Of a stretch of 64,000 nt of DNA, positions 2,859-57,506 are shown piece after piece (position 1 is the stretch's first letter; each line of letters begins with the position of its first letter). Source of the stretch: a virus; IMG/VR virus record IMGVR_UViG_3300020048_000012; one strand, 5' to 3'. Position numbers and translations under genes: made by a program. The notes under the pieces are model-generated. The model saw only the letters and a list, made by a program, of their open reading frames with translations, had not been told where the DNA came from and did not search any database.

Positions 2859-3563
2859 TTAAAGTACAGGATTAAATGCAACCTTTTGCTTAGTTGATTT
2901 AGTAGGCGCTTTCTTTGGGACCGGTTTAGCGCGTGTCACCTTATTAGCGGTTGGTTTAGATTCTACTTCATTCTTTATTTGTGTTGCATCAGATGCATCA
3001 ACGATTGCTTTACGCAATTCTGCGCGCTTAGTAATTCGCTTAACGACTTCTTCGCCATCCATCCAAATATCTTTATTATCGAGCATCGAACTAATTTCTT
3101 CGTTTGTCATAAAGTTTAGATAAATTTCTTTCATTAGATTTTCTGACCATTTGCGCTCATGCAAAAGCTGATCGATCATCTCTCCGCCTTTACCAATAGC
3201 GCCACCAGAATAATTGTGAAACATGAACACAGAATGCGGCGTGACTTCATATTGATCTGCACATAAGAAAATCATAGTTGCTGCGGACATGCATGCGCCT
3301 TCTACTGAAATAATCACATGAGCTTGGGTGTCAGCTAATACTCGCATAAACTGAATCGCAGTGAATAAATCGCCACCATAACTATTGATATACACCTTAA
3401 TACAATCATTTTCATTCGCGTGACGAATTAGGTTGAACCATTCTACATAATCTTCAGCGGGTCCAATTTCACCCGTTAAATAGAATTCATGAACGCTAGC
3501 AATTGGATTTACGTATACGCCGCGAGTAGTTTTTTGTTTAAAATCGAACATTTCTAAATCCAT
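2859..3563 (-). CDS. ClpP-like serine protease (S14 family) with basic C-terminal tail
   Basis: VYINSYGG, GACMSAAT (catalytic Ser), FMFHNYS (His), DIWMDGEE motifs. Confidence 0.85.
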   Translation of the reverse strand: MDLEMFDFKQKTTRGVYVNPIASVHEFYLTGEIGPAEDYVEWFNLIRHANENDCIKVYINSYGGDLFTAIQFMRVLADTQAHVIISVEGACMSAATMIFLCADQYEVTPHSVFMFHNYSGGAIGKGGEMIDQLLHERKWSENLMKEIYLNFMTNEEISSMLDNKDIWMDGEEVVKRITKRAELRKAIVDASDATQIKNEVESKPTANKVTRAKPVPKKAPTKSTKQKVAFNPVL

Positions 3564-3577
3564 AATAATCCTTATTG

Positions 3578-4099
3578 TTAATCCCGATAGAAAATATGTC
3601 GACCAATTTTTGTAGTTTTTTCCAGTCTACTCCAATTTGGTTGAACATAATCGGCATGATAGAACGTAGCACCAAATGTGTTATCCATTGTTGAATCATA
3701 ATTGAGATATACTAATGTGGCTATATCCTGTATCTGATTATACACAGATGTGTTAATTTTATTCAATCTATTTGTCATACCAACCCACGAAAATTGATAC
3801 GTACGACCAGTTTTTTGATATACAACTCCGCATAAAGAATTTGGGTATTTTCCAGATAGTGCCCTATTCATCGTAACAGCAGCGACAGCGATCCATCCTG
3901 CCATTGGCTCTCCAGCCGCTTCTCGATAAATGTTGATAGTTAAGCAATCAATTTGTTTTTTGACTGATTTTGACAATTCTGCGTATGCTACTTTATAATT
4001 CGATTCTCTCGATAATGTCGGCGCTATAGCAGAATTTGTAGTTGATATGAATGCTAAAATAAGCATTGCGTATATTGTGTATATGCTTCTTATTTGCAT
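3578..4099 (-). CDS. cell wall hydrolase, SleB/Hydrolase_2 family
   Basis: CLTINIYREAAGE...VAAVTMNR...YQFSW...ATFYHADYVQPNW...IGRHIFY. Confidence 0.9.
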   Translation of the reverse strand: MQIRSIYTIYAMLILAFISTTNSAIAPTLSRESNYKVAYAELSKSVKKQIDCLTINIYREAAGEPMAGWIAVAAVTMNRALSGKYPNSLCGVVYQKTGRTYQFSWVGMTNRLNKINTSVYNQIQDIATLVYLNYDSTMDNTFGATFYHADYVQPNWSRLEKTTKIGRHIFYRD

Positions 4100-4107
4100 A
4101 ATATCCT

Positions 4108-4194
4108 TTTAATTGAAGGCCAACTGATTTGGTTATAAGGACAGTTGGCGAAACCTCAGGCTAAGTCAGCTTACGCTGCAAGAGCCCAAACGTA
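4108..4194 (-). pseudogene. displaced original 3' end of tmRNA coding piece (tag end YVWALAA* plus pseudoknot)
   Basis: Minus strand TAC GTT TGG GCT CTT GCA GCG TAA (stop at 4171-4173), stop in hairpin CAGC-GTAA-GCTG, then 8-bp stem GCCAACTG/CAGTTGGC with TGAGG:CCTTA pseudoknot pairing. Confidence 0.7.
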
Positions 4195-4200
4195 TAAATA
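4193..4200 (+). promoter_or_regulatory. late promoter TATAAATA for antisense GIY-YIG gene
   Basis: Exact consensus about 40 nt upstream of ORF 4243. Confidence 0.7.
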
Positions 4201-4242
4201 TTTAATATTATCACACTAACATAAATTATTAGGAATGACATT

Positions 4243-4929
4243 ATGAATATCTATATGCCGTATGTATATAAAGTAACTCATACAACAACACAGCAATTCT
4301 ATATAGGAATGAGATCTGCTAATACTGTAGTTGCGGAAAATGATTTAGGCGTGCATTATTTTACTTCATCTAAATTTGTAAAGTCTAATTTTGATTGTTT
4401 TAAAATTAAAATTTTGGCATACTTTGTCGACCAAGAAGCGGCGTTCGAATTTGAAAATAATTTAATACGCGATAACTGGGGAAATTCTTTATTATTAAAT
4501 AAACACTTTCAGACATCTATGAGCACATTCTCTATGACTGGGTTTGCTCGTCCTGATCAATCTATTCGTAATAAACATACAAAAAGTAAACCAAAAGAGT
4601 CTAGAACATATGTATGTCCTAATTGCCAGATTGAACATATAAAGGTAGAGCATTCACATTTGATACGAAAGGACAAATATTGCAGTAAGAGATGCTCAAA
4701 TCAATCAAATGGCAAAAAGTCTATTCAGCACAATAAAGGCAAAAAGCTCAAAAACACTGGAAGAGTCGCGTGGAATAAAGGAATATCAAATCAACATAGC
4801 GCTGAAAATGGAAAAAGAAGTGCTGCGAAGCAATCTCAAACAATCACTGGAAGAAAAAGAAAATATAGAGATGATGGATCTTGGTTCTGGATTAAAGAGT
4901 CAGTTGATCCTGTTACGAAGCTCAACTGA
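4243..4929 (+). CDS. free-standing GIY-YIG (Seg-like) homing endonuclease with Zn-finger and NUMOD-like tail
   Basis: YVYKVTH...FYIGMR...E...N catalytic pattern; CPNC/CSKRC; AWNKG; antisense to neighbours. Confidence 0.8.
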   Translation: MNIYMPYVYKVTHTTTQQFYIGMRSANTVVAENDLGVHYFTSSKFVKSNFDCFKIKILAYFVDQEAAFEFENNLIRDNWGNSLLLNKHFQTSMSTFSMTGFARPDQSIRNKHTKSKPKESRTYVCPNCQIEHIKVEHSHLIRKDKYCSKRCSNQSNGKKSIQHNKGKKLKNTGRVAWNKGISNQHSAENGKRSAAKQSQTITGRKRKYRDDGSWFWIKESVDPVTKLN

Positions 4930-5238
4930 CAAAGCTCTACTCTATTGCTACTTATGCAGCTTGAAGAGAATATGCATACTCATCGTTTGCTTTTACTTGA
5001 TTTGCTTGATTAACGGTCATCGCGTACCGTGTCGCCGTCTCTACTATTTAGCCCAATCGATCGCCATGTCAGCCCCATCAGAAGAATTCTTGGCGTATCT
5101 GTCTTTGTTACCGGAATTGCACCGTACAAGCGGGATCTGGGATGCCAAACCTGAGGGATTAACCTTCAGAATTCTTCTGGTGGAGCTGCCGGCTTCGAAG
5201 CCGGTTCTTGGACTCCTTCATATTGAAGGGATTACGAC
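4895..5238 (-). ncRNA. ssrA: circularly permuted (two-piece) tmRNA
   Basis: Acceptor piece ends CAGCTCC-A-CCA at 5178; coding piece starts GGGGCTG at 5076 (G3:U70, A73 Ala identity); H2a TTGGGCT/AGTCCAA; tag ORF; 101-nt intervening segment closed by 10-bp inverted repeat. Outer ends approximate. Confidence 0.88.
4952..4990 (-). other. tmRNA proteolysis tag reading frame ANDEYAYSLQAA*
   Basis: GCA AAC GAT GAG TAT GCA TAT TCT CTT CAA GCT GCA TAA; canonical AND resume codons and AA C-terminus. Confidence 0.88.
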
Positions 5239-5244
5239 AATATT

Positions 5245-5454
5245 TTAATTATATCCCAAATCGATATTGTCTGAACAATCTAATTTTGGACATAAAAACC
5301 ACTTAGTTTTACGTAAGTATTCTAACATATCGCTCTTATTCATGGCCATTGCTTTTGATGACATCTCAACAAACACATCGTATCCATGTAATATTTCTTG
5401 CTCTGATTGCCCTTGGCACCATGCCTGATACATTGTTTTTGTGTAGATATACAT
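5245..5454 (-). CDS. hypothetical protein
   Basis: ORF track; late promoter TATAAATA at 5481-5488 upstream. Confidence 0.55.
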   Translation of the reverse strand: MYIYTKTMYQAWCQGQSEQEILHGYDVFVEMSSKAMAMNKSDMLEYLRKTKWFLCPKLDCSDNIDLGYN

Positions 5455-5480
5455 TCTGACCTCAAATAATACAGGTCTAT

Positions 5481-5488
5481 TATTTATA
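5481..5488 (-). promoter_or_regulatory. late promoter TATAAATA upstream of tmRNA locus
   Basis: Exact consensus in intergenic gap. Confidence 0.65.
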
Positions 5489-5494
5489 CAAAAA

Positions 5495-6145
5495 TTAATG
5501 TCCTTTTATGCGACGGAATTGTTCTCGTAGTTCAACAAACTTATCGATCCAATTATCGCGCTTTTCTATAAATATGCATGGATTTTCATTGTCAACTCCC
5601 ATGATAATCACAAGTCGTGAAACAGGAATGCCAGTTCTTTCTTCGAATGCAACTGCATACGCAGAGCACTGAATAAAATAACCAGGAATATCTTCTTTTG
5701 TTTTGACACGAGAAGACGTCTTAAAATCGACTACAGATATCTTACCATCGTAATCGCAGATACAGTCGACTGTTCCCGCGACTTGAAGATGATCAGAATA
5801 AAGTTTTGACTCCAATGCATGAATGTTATCCATCATATCAAGATGTGGAATCATTGAGTTAAATACTTGCTGATCGAAAATAGTAGGCGTTGGATTCTTG
5901 TCGTGTAAATAATCCTCGCACAGAGAGTGAATAATAGTTCCACGCCTACTAGCTCTAGCGCCGACTCGATTTGCTTCTTCTTCGCCAACTCGCCGACGCC
6001 ACGCAAACAGCTCATCTCTACCCAATTGCCCTGTGATAGAAGTCACAGATGGATATTTCAGTCCTGTTGGAGTTTGATAAACGCGTCCATTAGGTCCATC
6101 GACGCGTTTAATCGATGGAAATTCATGATGTATAAAATTTTTCAC
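5495..6145 (-). CDS. PD-(D/E)XK exonuclease (Cas4/lambda-exo-like, common in T4-like phages)
   Basis: YPSVTSI, RGTIIH, AGTVDC...VVDFKTS, YFIQCSAY motifs. Confidence 0.85.
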   Translation of the reverse strand: MKNFIHHEFPSIKRVDGPNGRVYQTPTGLKYPSVTSITGQLGRDELFAWRRRVGEEEANRVGARASRRGTIIHSLCEDYLHDKNPTPTIFDQQVFNSMIPHLDMMDNIHALESKLYSDHLQVAGTVDCICDYDGKISVVDFKTSSRVKTKEDIPGYFIQCSAYAVAFEERTGIPVSRLVIIMGVDNENPCIFIEKRDNWIDKFVELREQFRRIKGH

Positions 6146-8265: not shown

Positions 8266-8739
8266 TTACATAAGATATACGATAATGCATATCACAAATA
8301 GCGTTATAAGTGCTATTTTATACTTAGTGAATATGCTTTTCTTGGTGTTAGATTGTGCAATAGCGTTTTCTTTGCGATATAACTCTCGAAGTTGATACCT
8401 AAACATATTTGTTCTACGTTGCACAAGAGTTTTTGGCGGTCGTGGCTCAGTTCTAACTACATGCTTACTACGAGTTTTCAAAGACTGTGTAGTTCTTACG
8501 CTGGATTTAATTATTGGCGTTTTTACTTCTTTTTTCTTAGCAAAAAGCTTTATAGTTTTTACATATCTAGCGCCATTGCCAAGATTATAAGTTGTTGTCA
8601 GGCCTTTTTTGCCAAAATTTAATGTTAGATTGTTGCCTATCTTTTGACTTTGCGATATGCCGATACCGCCAGTTCGAGACGCATGGAAATTAGTCCATGA
8701 TTTGGCACCTTTAGTACGTTTGCGTACTATAAATCCCAT
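8266..8739 (-). CDS. DUF4236-like protein with C-terminal TM helix
   Basis: MGFIVRKR...GIGISQS...GLTTTYNLGNGARYVK; hydrophobic C-terminus. Confidence 0.55.
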   Translation of the reverse strand: MGFIVRKRTKGAKSWTNFHASRTGGIGISQSQKIGNNLTLNFGKKGLTTTYNLGNGARYVKTIKLFAKKKEVKTPIIKSSVRTTQSLKTRSKHVVRTEPRPPKTLVQRRTNMFRYQLRELYRKENAIAQSNTKKSIFTKYKIALITLFVICIIVYLM

Positions 8740-24049: not shown

Positions 24050-24145
24050 GAACTCATTGTAGGCAGGGGTCGAACCTGCACGAGGCGTCTATTTCCTCCG
24101 ACCCTATGAGAGGTCTATGACTACCAATTCCATCACTACGAGTTC
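24050..24145 (-). ncRNA. atypical class-II tRNA-like RNA, CAT anticodon
   Basis: Leu/Ser-type D loop, long variable arm, T loop TTCGACC, extended bulged acceptor, no intact CCA. Confidence 0.5.
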
Positions 24146-27413: not shown

Positions 27414-27499
27414 TGGCTCCACGGGTAGGGATCGAACCTACGATTGTCAAAAGACGACTGGTTAACAGCCAGCTGCATTACCTCTCTGCGCACCGTGGA
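27414..27499 (-). tRNA. tRNA-Asn(GTT) with long variable arm (86 nt)
   Basis: GCTGG-CTGTTAA-CCAGT, extra arm GTC-TTTT-GAC, G73, CCA. Confidence 0.85.
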
Positions 27500-31763: not shown

Positions 31764-31834
31764 AATATTTGAGCATACTAACTGGATCCATCTCGCACTA
31801 GGTGCATCTCGGGCGATCAATATGCTCAAATATT
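31764..31834 (-). ncRNA. inverted-repeat-bounded RNA cassette M
   Basis: Perfect 14-bp arms aatatttgagcata / tatgctcaaatatt. Confidence 0.45.
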
Positions 31835-31874
31835 GGAGCTGCTACGGAGAATCGAACTCCGCTTGTCGGGATGA
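31834..31874 (-). pseudogene. 3' half of split tRNA-Glu
   Basis: TCAT-CCCGA-CAAG-CGGAG-TTCGATT-CTCCG-TAGCAGC-T-CCA; no 5' half adjacent. Confidence 0.85.
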
Positions 31875-31876
31875 TC

Positions 31877-31951
31877 TGGAGTCGCATACGGGAATCGAAC
31901 CCGTCTCTACAGCATGAAAGGCTGTTGATCTAACCGATAATCTAATGCGAC
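31877..31951 (-). tRNA. tRNA-Glu(TTC), intact, overlapping endonuclease stop
   Basis: ACAGC-CTTTCAT-GCTGT, GTCGCAT/ATGCGAC, CCA. Confidence 0.92.
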
Positions 31952-32616
31952 ATTGTTCTACCTTGTTTAAATCCTTCTGGTATTATATCACTATCTTTTA
32001 TTCTGGTGTTCACTTTACCATCAGTTATCCAAACTTGCTTATATTTTCTTTTATATTCTTTAACTTTTTTACCAAGTAATGAATCAGAAATTTTCTTCTT
32101 CATCTCATCTGTCATTGTGTTCTTAGATTTTTGATGTCTGCCGGCACAAATTCTACTACAAAATTTTGTTTCGGTTTTTATCTTTCTCTCTGTTTCAAAC
32201 TCAATTTTACAACAATCACAGAGATGTTTATATTTTGGTTTATATCCATCGTATAGTTCAAAGTATTTCTTTGTTCCATATTTTCGAGTAACATATTCAA
32301 ATGCGTATTGTAAATCATCTTTACGTAACACATTTACAATATAACCAAAAGATTCAGCAACCTTTGTTTTCTTATCAACAAATTCTTGTTTCTCGTATCC
32401 CTTTGTTTCTATTATCGTTTTTCCATCAGATAATAGAAAATCAGGATAATAAGTTATTCCATCTTTTTCTAACTTTCCAGGAAATCTTTCGAACTCAATG
32501 TGGTGATCTAAACTATAGATCACCCAACACAATTCATAAGTGCTACCGCAATATATTCCATTATAGTATCCACTTTTTGATCTTCCAGAACCTTCTCTAT
32601 ATCCACCTATTGTCAT
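31942..32616 (-). CDS. PD-(D/E)XK-type free-standing homing endonuclease with Zn-finger and NUMOD-like tail
   Basis: YYPDFLL...IIETKG catalytic motif; CDCC/CSRIC; VWITDG; late promoter 32635-32642. Confidence 0.8.
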   Translation of the reverse strand: MTIGGYREGSGRSKSGYYNGIYCGSTYELCWVIYSLDHHIEFERFPGKLEKDGITYYPDFLLSDGKTIIETKGYEKQEFVDKKTKVAESFGYIVNVLRKDDLQYAFEYVTRKYGTKKYFELYDGYKPKYKHLCDCCKIEFETERKIKTETKFCSRICAGRHQKSKNTMTDEMKKKISDSLLGKKVKEYKRKYKQVWITDGKVNTRIKDSDIIPEGFKQGRTMSH

Positions 32617-32634
32617 ATAACACCTCCATTTTAT

Positions 32635-32642
32635 TATTTATA
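32635..32642 (-). promoter_or_regulatory. late promoter TATAAATA for endonuclease gene
   Basis: Exact consensus followed by SD GGAGG. Confidence 0.72.
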
Positions 32643-32651
32643 TAAAATGAG

Positions 32652-32677
32652 TGTCCTAACCGATAGACGATAGCAGC
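32652..32677 (-). pseudogene. 5' half of split tRNA-Glu
   Basis: GCTGCTA-TC-GTCT-ATCGGTTA-GGAC-A; GCTGCTA pairs perfectly with TAGCAGC at 31838-31844. Confidence 0.85.
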
Positions 32678-35054: not shown

Positions 35055-35873
35055 ATGAATATTTATACAACCGTTCCATTTACATATTGCATACGATGGA
35101 CAGCCCATAACAAATGGTACTATGGCGTAAAGTATTCAGATGGATGCTCTCCAAAAGATTTATGGACTACATATTTCACGAGTTCTAAATACGTAAAAGA
35201 ATTTAGAACCGCGTACGGAGAACCAGATTTAATAGAAATTAGAAAAATCTTTGACTCAAAAACTGCTGCGCGCAAATGGGAAAATAAATTTTTATTAAAG
35301 ACAAAAGCCGGCAAGAATCCAAATTCCTTAAACATGGCAAACGCAGGATCGTTCGGTATCAAGATATTTAAACCAAAAAATCTTCCAGGGAATTCTGGAC
35401 CCACTGCAAAAATAAATCAATTAGAAGCGCGCACCATCGAATTGCTCAATATCAAAAAATCTTATATTAAGCAATCTAACAAAGGTCGACGGTGGGTTAA
35501 TTTCAAATTCGTGTTTTTCATTTTCTTCTTAGATGAACTAGAAAGATCTGAGTTTTTGGCACACAATCCAGATTGGTCGTTCGGAAGAAATAGTCAGGAA
35601 ATGAAATCTTCTATATCTAAAAAACTGACAAATGTAAGTAAACCAGTTAGATCTAAAGAACACTGTGAAAAAATTAGTAAAGCTACTAGAGGTAGTAAAA
35701 AGCCAAACTCTGGGCCAAAAAATTACATTCACTATAATAATGGCATCGATGAAATTTTGATTCATCGGACTGACGAAATTCCGAATGGGTTTACTATTGG
35801 AAGAATTCCAGGCAAATATGGAAATGCAAAATTTGGCAGAGATATGAATATATTACGCGATATGATCAAATGA
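35055..35873 (+). CDS. free-standing GIY-YIG-like homing endonuclease
   Basis: FTYCIRW...WYYGVK...YFTSSK...WE...LN; NUMOD3-like RSKEHCEKIS; converges on ligase 3' end. Confidence 0.78.
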   Translation: MNIYTTVPFTYCIRWTAHNKWYYGVKYSDGCSPKDLWTTYFTSSKYVKEFRTAYGEPDLIEIRKIFDSKTAARKWENKFLLKTKAGKNPNSLNMANAGSFGIKIFKPKNLPGNSGPTAKINQLEARTIELLNIKKSYIKQSNKGRRWVNFKFVFFIFFLDELERSEFLAHNPDWSFGRNSQEMKSSISKKLTNVSKPVRSKEHCEKISKATRGSKKPNSGPKNYIHYNNGIDEILIHRTDEIPNGFTIGRIPGKYGNAKFGRDMNILRDMIK

Positions 35874-55462: not shown

Positions 55463-55513
55463 GAACAATGACGTACGTCACTATTGGTGCTCTAAGTTGT
55501 TGATTTATATAGG
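55463..55513. repeat. promoter-upstream module copy 7
   Basis: gaacaatgacgtacgtcactattggtgctctaagttgttgatttatatagg. Confidence 0.9.
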
Positions 55514-56928
55514 GCTCTTTTATCACCAAGAGCCTTGAATAGTTCCTCAATCTCATTTGCGGCTTCTTCGAGAAGGTCTGCGATACGGTCTGGTTGACCC
55601 TCTTGAACACTTTTACGTGTCAAAATCTGCCTACGTATCTCGGCTCGTTTGCGCAAGCGGTAAATCAGTGTGTGTTCAGTCAAATCACCTATCACTTTAG
55701 CAAGACGTTCATCGAAAGTGCCCGTCAGAATTTCGTAATCGGCGCCGGAATTATCGAGGTGATCGATGTAAAATTCATGACCTTTTTGACGAAATGTTTC
55801 ATCTTGTCGAGTTCCATCTTGCACCATCGGAAAATCTGGAGCGCATACGTAGACTTTATGGTATCGATAATCACTATCATAGACCATATTCAACAATGAA
55901 GTCGAAACTCGATCAAATAATTCCCGACTATAAAACAGTGTAGTCAAAGGAGATGTGTCGCAAAACAAATATTGATCAAATGATAAACGATTTACATGAC
56001 TATCTTCAAGTTCCAATTGAGTCTTAGCGATGTATTCCATATCCTCATACATCAATTTTTGATTACGGTTATCATAATGAGTACGACCAAACTCGAATGC
56101 TGCCGCAGAGTTAAAGTGTTTGAACAAGGCTGCGACTAATGTCGATTTACCGGTAGACTCACCGCCAAGAAATAAAATTTTACGAACAAATGACGCAATA
56201 ACAATTGGCGACATATATTTTTCAACAAGTGAACGATCACCAGATGATAAAGCTTTACGCAATTGTGTTCCAGATATCGAGAATTTTTCTCTGGCACTAT
56301 CAACCATTACATGATCAACCACAATTTGTTGTTTTGGAAAAGCATTAGAAAAATAATTTGTCAGATACTCAGCGAATCCTTCGCCATATGGTTCAGAAGT
56401 AAACACAGCTTGTACTGTAGTTTCCAATGAATCTAATAGAAAGTTAGCGCAATACTGACGGTGAATTTTATCACTAGCATTGTCTTGCAAATATACATCT
56501 GCATCATCGATTACGTGAATGCTTAGACGATCCTGATCACACTCAATGTGTTTTAACCACTTTCTACGGTTTTCTGCATCACACCCTTCAAAAGATTCGG
56601 ATGTATATGACAGGACAATAACCTTTTCACATTGTTCTAGTGCTGTCTTGATGAGATATTCGTGTCCTTTATGCAATGGGCAAAACTTACCAACTACAAA
56701 TCCTGTGACATATTTCTTAGCGCTTTCATGCGCATTAAACCATTCTTGCATAGCTTGAAAAGCTTTTTCTCGATTGCCATACTGACTACGTTCTGTAGTG
56801 CTCGCAAAGATTTTTCCTGTAGGAATGTGGGTGATCCTAATACCACTACTATTAATTGGTGCAAAACCACCCATTTGCACACAAATCACGTCTACTCTAA
56901 TATCTTTTGGGCTTAGTGTGTTTTTCAT
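55492..56928 (-). CDS. nadR: NadR-like NMN adenylyltransferase / ribosylnicotinamide kinase with extra N- and C-terminal domains
   Basis: VGKFCPLHKGH (HxGH), GGESTGKST, FCDTSPLTT, VQDGTR; start at ATG overlapping pnuC stop. Confidence 0.9.
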   Translation of the reverse strand: MKNTLSPKDIRVDVICVQMGGFAPINSSGIRITHIPTGKIFASTTERSQYGNREKAFQAMQEWFNAHESAKKYVTGFVVGKFCPLHKGHEYLIKTALEQCEKVIVLSYTSESFEGCDAENRRKWLKHIECDQDRLSIHVIDDADVYLQDNASDKIHRQYCANFLLDSLETTVQAVFTSEPYGEGFAEYLTNYFSNAFPKQQIVVDHVMVDSAREKFSISGTQLRKALSSGDRSLVEKYMSPIVIASFVRKILFLGGESTGKSTLVAALFKHFNSAAAFEFGRTHYDNRNQKLMYEDMEYIAKTQLELEDSHVNRLSFDQYLFCDTSPLTTLFYSRELFDRVSTSLLNMVYDSDYRYHKVYVCAPDFPMVQDGTRQDETFRQKGHEFYIDHLDNSGADYEILTGTFDERLAKVIGDLTEHTLIYRLRKRAEIRRQILTRKSVQEGQPDRIADLLEEAANEIEELFKALGDKRALYKSTT

Positions 56929-57506
56929 TTTTGTTCCTTTATCAATTTCTTCCAATGGAAATATGAATACACCGCATTAACCCAGAATGCTCCATACATA
57001 ATGCTAGTAAGATACAGTTCGCGAGACCAAAACAATGGAACTGACATCGTATTTACAAATACCCACACTTTCCACGTTTGAATAGATCGGCCCATTAGCA
57101 ATAGTTGTGCTACCACAGAGAATGCAAGTACAGCAGAATCTATCCATGGAGCATATGCATCAGTAAACGTGCGAAGGATCATGCCATACATCACGGTCAC
57201 TGCCACTGCTGCAATCATTGCAAAAGCCATCCAAAAAGGTGTTGCTTTATTGATTAGGGTTTCTTTTGCATCGGGCGTTTTGAAAAAATCCACGCCTTTC
57301 CATTTCATCCAACCAATAACACCAGTGACAAAGAAGAAGATTTGCAGTGTAGCGTCAGCATAAAGCTGAACTTTGTAAAACATGACACCGTAGAGCGCGC
57401 AACCAACAAGACCTGTCCACCAAGTGTGAATAGAATTTCTGCCTGCAAGGAAAATACAAACAACGGTGAAGAAGTTTGCAGCAAGTTCAAGAGGTGTCCA
57501 AGTCAT
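56925..57506 (-). CDS. pnuC: nicotinamide riboside transporter PnuC
   Basis: AGRNSIHTWWTG, LYADATLQ, PWIDSAV, AQLLL...W..W..VN. Confidence 0.92.
   Translation of the reverse strand: MTWTPLELAANFFTVVCIFLAGRNSIHTWWTGLVGCALYGVMFYKVQLYADATLQIFFFVTGVIGWMKWKGVDFFKTPDAKETLINKATPFWMAFAMIAAVAVTVMYGMILRTFTDAYAPWIDSAVLAFSVVAQLLLMGRSIQTWKVWVFVNTMSVPLFWSRELYLTSIMYGAFWVNAVYSYFHWKKLIKEQK

Follow-up and report, generated by a model that had tools for sequence, protein, structure and literature searches.

The window analysed here, a stretch of 64,000 nucleotides (nt) from the IMG/VR virus record IMGVR_UViG_3300020048_000012, is part of a T4-like phage of about 200 kb (201,835 bp) that has its own beta-type two-piece transfer-messenger RNA (tmRNA); genes for topoisomerase II subunits, RNA and DNA ligases and PhoH make up its T4-like surroundings. 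Within the tag-coding region of this tmRNA gene lies a cassette with an antisense GIY-YIG endonuclease gene, which is the subject of this work. The tmRNA gene is complete, circularly permuted and located on the minus strand, at 5275..4899 including its promoter-like part and at 5239..4899 without it. An Rfam scan covering 3900–5500 on both strands at E ≤ 1 matched the permuted tmRNA model RF04321 to minus 5239..4952 with 114.7 bits (gathering threshold 47), and the beta_tmRNA model RF01850 scored 88 bits in the same scan against a gathering threshold of 84. ARAGORN called 33 tRNA genes in the window and no tmRNA in the window or in the related loci L002 and L036, and it was left out of the tmRNA counts given below. 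Directly upstream of the acceptor piece, a sigma-70-like candidate promoter (TTCAGA-16-TATAAT, 5248..5275, minus strand), a consensus match only (10/12 in a consensus scan), aligns with the promoter part of the Rfam beta_tmRNA model. The acceptor piece (5178..5239, minus strand; RF04321 positions 1–62) comprises the 3′ strand of P2, the T arm and the 3′ acceptor strand ending CAGCTCCACCA, and is identical to L002 at 61 of 67 positions. Its last bases, ..CCGGCTTCGAAGCCGG CAGCTCC ACCA, terminate at 5178, and GGGGCTG, with which they form an acceptor stem whose third pair reads as G-U (G3 with U), begins at 5076. According to the RF04321 structure line, the tRNA-like domain and P2 are built from the acceptor piece and the start of the coding piece. 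Between CCA and GGGGCTG the Rfam alignment leaves an intervening segment of 101 nt (5077..5177, minus strand), which could not be aligned to L002, is closed by a 10-bp inverted repeat (5177–5168/5090–5081, read from the sequence) and is expected to be removed during maturation. The resident 5′ half of the coding piece (4983..5076, minus strand), delimited by Rfam, consists of GGGGCTG, P2, the PK1 region and the resume codon GCA at 4990–4988, and also encodes the tag codons A and N and the first two bases of D. The covariance model matches, the CCA-ended acceptor piece with its G-U pair and T arm, and a tag frame followed by a pseudoknot together identify the gene as a beta-type two-piece tmRNA.

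Two copies of a tmRNA 3′ end flank the endonuclease gene, one on either side. The active tag frame, from GCA 4990–4988 to TAA 4954–4952, reads ANDEYAYSLQAA, and its end belongs to a replacement 3′ module (4899..4982, minus strand) that is contiguous with the resume codon and carries the tag end (D)EYAYSLQAA, the stop codon, a GAGC box and a pseudoknot hairpin. In the predicted fold of this proximal module, the stop codon lies within a 5-bp hairpin (4960–4947, GCUGC-AUAA-GUAGC), followed by the GAGC box (4937–4934) with TTT and by a 9-bp stem (4930..4899) with a GCUUCGUAAC loop that starts GCTTCGTAAC; the GAGC box pairs with GCUU in the loop of this last hairpin, which is encoded antisense by the last 10 codons of the nuclease gene. 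Past the nuclease start, the minus strand runs from ..TAT into ACGTTTGGGCTCTTGCAGCGTAA and thereby yields a second tag end, (Y)VWALAA, followed by a stop. This distal module (4119..4193, minus strand), whose resident part reads (N)VWALAA, has its stop codon TAA 4173–4171 within a 4-bp hairpin (CAGC-GUAA-GCUG by fold), a GAGG box with TTT, and an 8-bp stem (4156..4119) with a UCCUUAUAAC loop starting TCCTTATAAC; neither a resume codon nor a 5′ half goes with it. The stem cores of the two modules are the same hexamer with the arms swapped. An initial annotation of the window had described the tag frame beside the antisense gene, the architecture common to both ends and the stem hidden in the last nuclease codons, and all three were borne out by Rfam, the sequence and the folds. 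It had also read the second tag end as YVWALAA; that end is present, except that the Y is junctional, with only the last two bases of its codon resident (the corresponding codon is AAC in L002).

The gene between the two ends, at 4243..4929 on the plus strand, is predicted to encode a free-standing GIY-YIG homing endonuclease of 228 residues, judged by PHROG, fold and family residues, and its product would be expected to cleave a specific site and to home. It combines a catalytic domain, a CxxC..CxxxC zinc finger, an AWNKG/NUMOD3-like motif and a GRKRKY..DGSWxW tail, and matches PHROG 314 ('homing endonuclease') with an E-value of 1.2e-11. The Pfam model PF01541 (GIY-YIG) matched the window protein weakly, below the cut-off (15.8 bits versus 22.6, E 0.018); among 32 aligned family members, GIY-YIG was found at E ≤ 0.01 in nine (best 2.6e-5), NUMOD3 in two and similarity to SegE_GIY-YIG in only one. 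Since PDB searches by sequence, whether with the protein itself or with a profile, returned only zinc-finger noise, the GIY-YIG assignment rests on the fold search and on the family-level Pfam hits. An AlphaFold model (pLDDT 83) had the catalytic domain of I-TevI as its top Foldseek match (probability 0.98–0.99, TM-score 0.51–0.54), and VIA-align superposed 85 residues on the same domain with a Z-score of 6.5 and a root-mean-square deviation of 3.5 Å, the best 11 rows all being GIY-YIG domains. The window protein has Y7, Y9, Y20-I-G22, R24, E71 and N86, which are at least 90% conserved in the 32 homologs. A metagenome protein search detected 75 homologs, and 219 stretches in IMG/VR matched. 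Members of the family usually end about five residues past DGSWxW, the window protein being extended for a short distance into the tmRNA hairpin; similar overlaps of nuclease and hairpin occur in L044, L045 and L125.

At the cassette edge, 43 nt before the ATG of the endonuclease gene, stands a TATAAATA box (4193..4200, plus strand), one of only four plus-strand sites in 64 kb. TATAAATA is the late-promoter consensus of phage T4, and the box is a putative promoter of the nuclease gene, as suggested by its sequence. In 18 of the 21 related loci, a box of the form (A/T/G)ATAAATA precedes the nuclease start codon by 20–38 nt, marking a conserved cassette end. A perfect sigma-70 consensus (TTGACA-18-TATAAT, 12/12) was also noted at 3970–3999 on the plus strand, antisense within the hydrolase gene and pointing toward the nuclease. 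Elsewhere in the window, a second GIY-YIG-like open reading frame (ORF) at 35055–35873 (plus strand), 32% identical to the tmRNA-associated nuclease over the first 75 residues, lies at the edge of the 33-gene tRNA cluster, on the strand opposite to its neighbours; it looks like a SegB-like free-standing nuclease.

A nuclease-free relative shows how the two ends arose. IMG/VR was searched with the neighbouring cell-wall hydrolase (3578–4099), which gave 29 related loci; a beta-type two-piece tmRNA was found upstream of the hydrolase gene in six, and the nuclease in none of the six. The closest, L002, has the gene order of the window, two upstream flanking proteins that are 91% identical, and no nuclease gene, so that the nuclease is polymorphic for presence and absence at the tmRNA of otherwise syntenic loci. 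Its tmRNA is uninterrupted, with the tag region GCA AAC GAC AAC GTT TGG GCT CTT GCA GCG TAA, that is, ANDNVWALAA and a stop. Similarity between the window and L002 ends at 4983 and returns at 4193, which places an insert of 789 bp (4194..4982) after tag codon 3 and ahead of base 2 of codon 4, just inside the best-conserved part of the gene (TAAAY GCA AAY GAY). The inserted cassette, absent from L002, consists of the replacement 3′ module, the antisense endonuclease gene, which is its sole ORF, and the promoter box. The identities on the two sides of the break are discordant. In the 5′ half of the coding piece, the window agrees with L002 at 88 of 95 positions (92.6%) and with L125, a tmRNA from another genetic background, at 61%. 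The distal module agrees with L002 at 73 of 75 positions (97.3%), the two differences being one compensatory stem change from G-C to A-T, whereas the proximal module in use is 54% identical to L002 and 78% (67/86) to L125. Because L002 is uninterrupted and its working end is the one that resembles the distal copy, the distal copy is the displaced resident end and the proximal one came with the nuclease; because the two copies inside the window are only 56% identical, they did not arise by local duplication; and because the discordance between 5′ and 3′ parts holds in both directions, the gene is a chimera whose 3′ module travels. The inference of the initial annotation that a nuclease module invaded ssrA with a diverged 3′ half thus agrees with the empty site, although the break is at codons 3/4 and not at codon 5. 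Its expectation that an empty relative would read the tag contiguously was likewise correct, except in the wording of that tag, ANDNVWALAA in place of ANDEYVWALAA; L002 carries the VWALAA version and not the YAYSLQAA version that would have spoken against the idea. A 153-residue porin-like ORF present in L002 (5416–5877), between the tmRNA and the hydrolase gene, is missing at 4100–4118 of the window, indicating that the region downstream of the tmRNA varies independently of the nuclease cassette. A megablast search of isolate phages with 25 kb of window sequence gave no match.

The source of the active end was sought by its pseudoknot. The sole match in a blastn search with the locus was a 58-nt pseudoknot, 85% identical, in the tmRNA of Alcaligenes phage vB_Af_QDWS595. 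This isolate is N4-like, and its two-piece tmRNA is an ordinary one, with the tag ANDNVYAAAA and a pseudoknot of the type of the active module; no nuclease gene is annotated in the 5-kb locus around this tmRNA (L001). IMG/VR contained no exact match to a 26-mer taken from the proximal pseudoknot. A metagenome scan with an 18-mer of the proximal loop returned eight loci, only one of which, L125, is a tmRNA. The tag of L125 is ANDEYAYSLKAA, and its pseudoknot loop is identical to that of the active module in the window. At 8736–8930 of L125, this module is followed by a fragment that matches only nuclease residues 168–216 (about 50 C-terminal codons), behind which stands an orphan resident-type pseudoknot (GAGGCGC..GCGCCTC); L125 holds a decayed cassette in another genetic background. 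In the nuclease-free relative L005 (4775–4870), 27 nt of an L004-type pseudoknot (GGTTTCCTCGTAACAGAATAACCTACC) are found on their own about 60 nt past the working tmRNA pseudoknot, probably left behind by a cassette that subsequently lost its nuclease gene.

The association with tmRNA extends to the whole nuclease family. Homologs that are 55–58% identical to the window protein, from three protein clusters and different neighbourhoods, are each convergent with, and immediately 3′ of, a permuted tmRNA. A tmRNA signal was present beside the gene in all 17 IMG/VR loci with full-length homologs (L041–L057), as opposed to just one of the 62 loci whose GIY-YIG homologs are distant and match in the N-terminal part only. 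The coding piece was recognisable in 16 of the 17, by Rfam in 15 and by an nhmmer profile in L043, where it precedes the contig end; in L052 the contig stops short of the expected position, and nhmmer found only an acceptor-like match, which lies across the gene from there. Immediately beyond the start of the nuclease gene, the tmRNA strand of the family loci carries a conserved TATTTATCAAATTAT; GAT GAR and a short tag end come next without a gap, in many cases together with a pseudoknot. This arrangement indicates that the usual insertion falls between tag codons 2 and 3, in the most conserved stretch of the gene. A displaced remnant of a tag end occupies the same position in nearly all of the 17 loci. 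Remnant tag ends include DEIFALAA (L036), DEVFALAA (L053), DKIFALAA (L055), DENGAIAA (L041) and DNCCCLAA (L054), each with a stop codon, and (Y)ALAA with two stop codons (L031). The tags in use, half of them read by eye, are either longer or atypical, as ANDEAFYQDLKLAA, ANDEHFEVRLAA and ANDSQFLQAVNA illustrate; in L031, ARAGORN calls only the last 11 codons (AANADSYELVA) of what appears to be a 35-codon frame starting from the canonical resume position. L056 (998–2130) is an exception in layout, with the nuclease co-oriented with and downstream of the tmRNA, the tag ANDSQFRAAA and no recognisable displaced remnant. Enlarged intervening segments of about 200–430 nt were also seen in L041 (2370–2740) and L046 (2335–2545), both on the minus strand; they look as if they hold small ORFs, a different way to lodge DNA in a two-piece tmRNA gene.

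The 3′ modules of these loci share a plan but not a sequence. When the stems of the 17 loci and the window were tabulated by anchoring at the hairpin ends (the rows of L031, L036, L039 and L045 being uninformative), the 20 modules had 19 different 5′-arm sequences, and 16 of them formed a stem of 6–9 bp that encloses a conserved loop. Covariation links the upstream box to the start of this loop, in the combinations GAGC/GCUU, GAGG/CCUU, GGGG/CCUU and GAGU/GCUU. The tag, the stop hairpin and the last pseudoknot are a self-contained 3′ tail of the permuted tmRNA that makes no long-range pairs. The likeness of the two modules in the window is not due to chance, since the distal copy matches the working end of a relative at 73 of 75 positions and the stem/loop module recurs with differing arms.

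Taken together, these data make it very probable that a nuclease cassette has replaced the 3′ end of the phage tmRNA gene (its last ~85 bases), stranding the phage's own end behind the nuclease gene and changing the tag without splicing. Four other explanations were weighed. Phage group I introns commonly carry GIY-YIG genes, and the insert might be an intron, of group I or another kind, whose splicing joins ANDE or ANDN to the distal VWALAA, leaving the proximal module intronic. Group I introns do exist in tmRNA genes, some with homing endonuclease genes, but those described sit in the T loop and carry LAGLIDADG genes (PMC11915505). Only the two tmRNA models, and no group I or group II intron model, matched 3900–5500 on either strand at E ≤ 1, so the intron that the initial annotation had named as a possible refutation finds no model match in the insert. 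The nuclease gene, moreover, is antisense and occupies almost the whole insert, the proximal module supplies an entire tag end in frame, with stop hairpin and pseudoknot, of the type used by the ordinary QDWS595 tmRNA, and a proximal-type module outlasts the decay of the nuclease in L125. An intron is accordingly very unlikely. We give equally little credence to the converse assignment, in which the proximal tmRNA is resident and the mobile unit is the nuclease gene together with a distal fragment, dropped downstream of an intact gene. Free-standing Seg-type nucleases are usually intergenic and drag flanking donor sequence with them, as SegB does (PMC2330249), which would fit such an event; the distal fragment, however, is the one that is 97.3% identical to the working module of L002, whereas the proximal module is 54% identical to it and matches instead a tmRNA with an unrelated 5′ half.

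A tandem duplication of the tmRNA 3′ end, with the nuclease arriving later between the copies and divergence in place, would account for their common architecture and for the stem-core hexamer with swapped arms. Yet the copies are 56% identical although the distal one is still 97% identical to L002, so divergence must have struck one copy alone; it would also have had to converge on the module type of L125 and QDWS595, and the same arrangement occurs with different module pairs in more than 15 other loci, which leaves this history highly improbable as well. Least probable of the four, by a little, is a regulated two-tag system in which the phage can give its tmRNA one tag end or the other, for instance as infection proceeds. 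In its favour, the distal module is structurally intact by fold and the late-promoter-like box adjoins it. That module nevertheless has no resume codon, 5′ acceptor strand, PK1 or tmRNA-strand promoter of its own, and the distal copies decay in relatives, as seen in DNCCCLAA, in the loss of pseudoknots and in L125 and L005, where only a pseudoknot fragment is left.

Replacement of the tmRNA end by the cassette suggests the following model. A mobile cassette of about 0.8 kb entered the tag-coding region at codons 3/4, carrying as cargo a foreign, self-contained 3′ module and, on the opposite strand, the GIY-YIG gene behind a T4-late-type box. Since the free 3′ end of the coding piece consists of the tag and the last pseudoknot, the new module can simply substitute for the old one and splicing is not needed. 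The hybrid tmRNA, presumably functional, would now end at the new pseudoknot and add the protein tag ANDEYAYSLQAA in place of ANDNVWALAA, while the phage's own 3′ module is left behind the nuclease gene, where sequence past the new tail should be irrelevant to the RNA. By analogy with SegB and the fungal elements discussed below, in a mixed infection the nuclease may cut nuclease-free tmRNA genes near the start of the tag. Repair would then copy the cassette from the donor, with the 5′ half of the tmRNA as the left arm and the stranded remnant as the right arm, and the interrupted and diverged allele would no longer be cut, so that the carrier would be protected.

Beyond this locus, the family may represent a widespread and undescribed class of 'home-and-rescue' elements that specialise in the two-piece tmRNA of phages, use the remnant as downstream homology arm and are the main source of unusual tags; this wider proposal is tentative, and we rate it slightly below an even chance. 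Several observations weigh against the replacement model itself. No intact donor with the exact module of the window was found, the nuclease gene of L125 is degenerate, and the closest homolog of the nuclease is just 58% identical. The left junction can be placed no more finely than GCAAACGA/T/G, a sequence common to donor and recipient. The remnant in the window lacks the usual GAYRA and its edge departs from the family consensus, so a small secondary deletion must be assumed, and in L039, L054 and L055 the remnant has no pseudoknot, which weakens its role as a necessary homology arm. The new tag ends in QAA versus the usual LAA, which bears on whether it still directs proteolysis. Finally, the phage is known from metagenomes only.

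The nearest described mechanism is that of the fungal mitochondrial mORFs, which bring a replacement C-terminus of the invaded gene, as in atp6 of Allomyces macrogynus and atp6, atp9 (with a GIY-YIG nuclease), cox2 and nad3 of Glomus sp. (PMC3630166). In the mORFs as in the window, an endonuclease gene with a foreign 3′ end sits in a conserved gene and the native end is left downstream, and the native end is closest to an endonuclease-free sister while the inserted end is divergent (PMC3630166); the corresponding values in the window are 97.3% to L002 for the native end, and 54% to L002 and 78% to L125 for the inserted one. The mORFs, however, invade protein genes of organelles, leave the protein sequence nearly unchanged and are often fused in frame (PMC3630166), whereas the window has a viral structural RNA gene, an antisense nuclease, an altered tag and a dependence on the permuted gene order. 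SegB and other Seg and Mob nucleases resemble the window gene as free-standing GIY-YIG enzymes of T4-like phages beside small-RNA genes, with similar GIY-YIG and NUMOD-like domains; SegB recognises a conserved motif of RNA genes and spreads itself and flanking RNA genes in mixed infections (PMC2330249). It lies, however, between tRNA genes with homologous flanks on both sides, splits no gene and leaves no displaced copy (PMC2330249), whereas the cassette in the window is inside its target gene and supplies a substitute for the severed part.

Integrase islands and prophages in ssrA (Islander) likewise split the gene, regenerate its 3′ end and leave a displaced fragment at the far end, but they do so with a tyrosine integrase and near-identical att sites in the tRNA-like 3′ end of bacterial one-piece genes, over many kb (PMC4383910). 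The window has no integrase, a cassette of 0.8 kb, a site in the tag frame and a strongly diverged replacement; an integrase-mobilised ssrA island was considered and rejected, as the insert holds no tyrosine integrase and its two gene ends share 56% identity. T-loop group I introns also place an element bearing a homing endonuclease inside a tmRNA gene, but they function by splicing and carry, in some cases, a LAGLIDADG nuclease (PMC11915505), and no intron structure was detected in the window. A 2025 tmRNA database paper distinguishes three gene forms and, as interruptions, describes T-loop group I introns only (PMC11915505), and no account of a nuclease cassette within a tmRNA tag came up in full-text literature searches. 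The remark in the initial annotation that nothing comparable was known therefore has to be narrowed: the mORF ends (PMC3630166) and the integrase islands (PMC4383910) are comparable, although neither occurs in a tmRNA tag or in a phage.

Other genes of the phage touch on the same biology. A ClpP-like 'ATP-dependent protease' gene (phrog_1827, E 3e-64; 2859–3563, minus strand) lies two genes downstream of the tmRNA, so that the genes for a tagging RNA and for a Clp-type protease subunit are near neighbours in this phage. A 487-residue ORF at 55492–56955 (minus strand) joins an N-terminal RF-1 domain segment to a nicotinamide-nucleotide adenylyltransferase; its RF-1 part is like a peptide chain release factor, possibly of the ArfB rescue type, and may make this a second gene of the phage related to ribosome rescue. 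PCRF/RF-1 genes lie near the tmRNA in L031 as well. In the tRNA region, a 224-residue ORF (31942–32616) overlaps the 5′ end of tRNA-Glu (31877–31951) in a minus-strand region at 31834–32677, and ARAGORN called two unusual genes in the tRNA cluster, an 88-nt tRNA-like gene with a two-base 'anticodon' (24055–24142, minus strand) and an unusually long tRNA-Asn of 86 nt (27414–27499, minus strand).

For the annotation of phage genomes, second 'tag ends' beside tmRNA genes should be read as relics, and genes such as the one in the window, which ARAGORN misses, may be overlooked. Besides hiding in introns or inteins and parking between genes, homing endonucleases would have a third route into a gene of the essential type, namely to bring a substitute for the part that they cut off, here applied to a viral structural RNA gene. 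The permuted tmRNA is prone to such invasion because its tag and last pseudoknot are free-standing and can be swapped as a unit. If the wider proposal is true, the cassette acts as an intron does, with both 'exons' in one conserved gene and without splicing, and would be a natural analogue, on an RNA gene, of engineered cleave-and-rescue gene drives; the family would offer such a natural drive for study, and possibly new site-specific nucleases that recognise the conserved start of the tmRNA tag. The nucleases would also shuttle tag-plus-pseudoknot modules between unrelated phages and so give rise to long or atypical phage tmRNA tags. Phage tmRNA tags can change by module exchange and not by point mutation, which bears on which proteases see the tagged proteins during infection.

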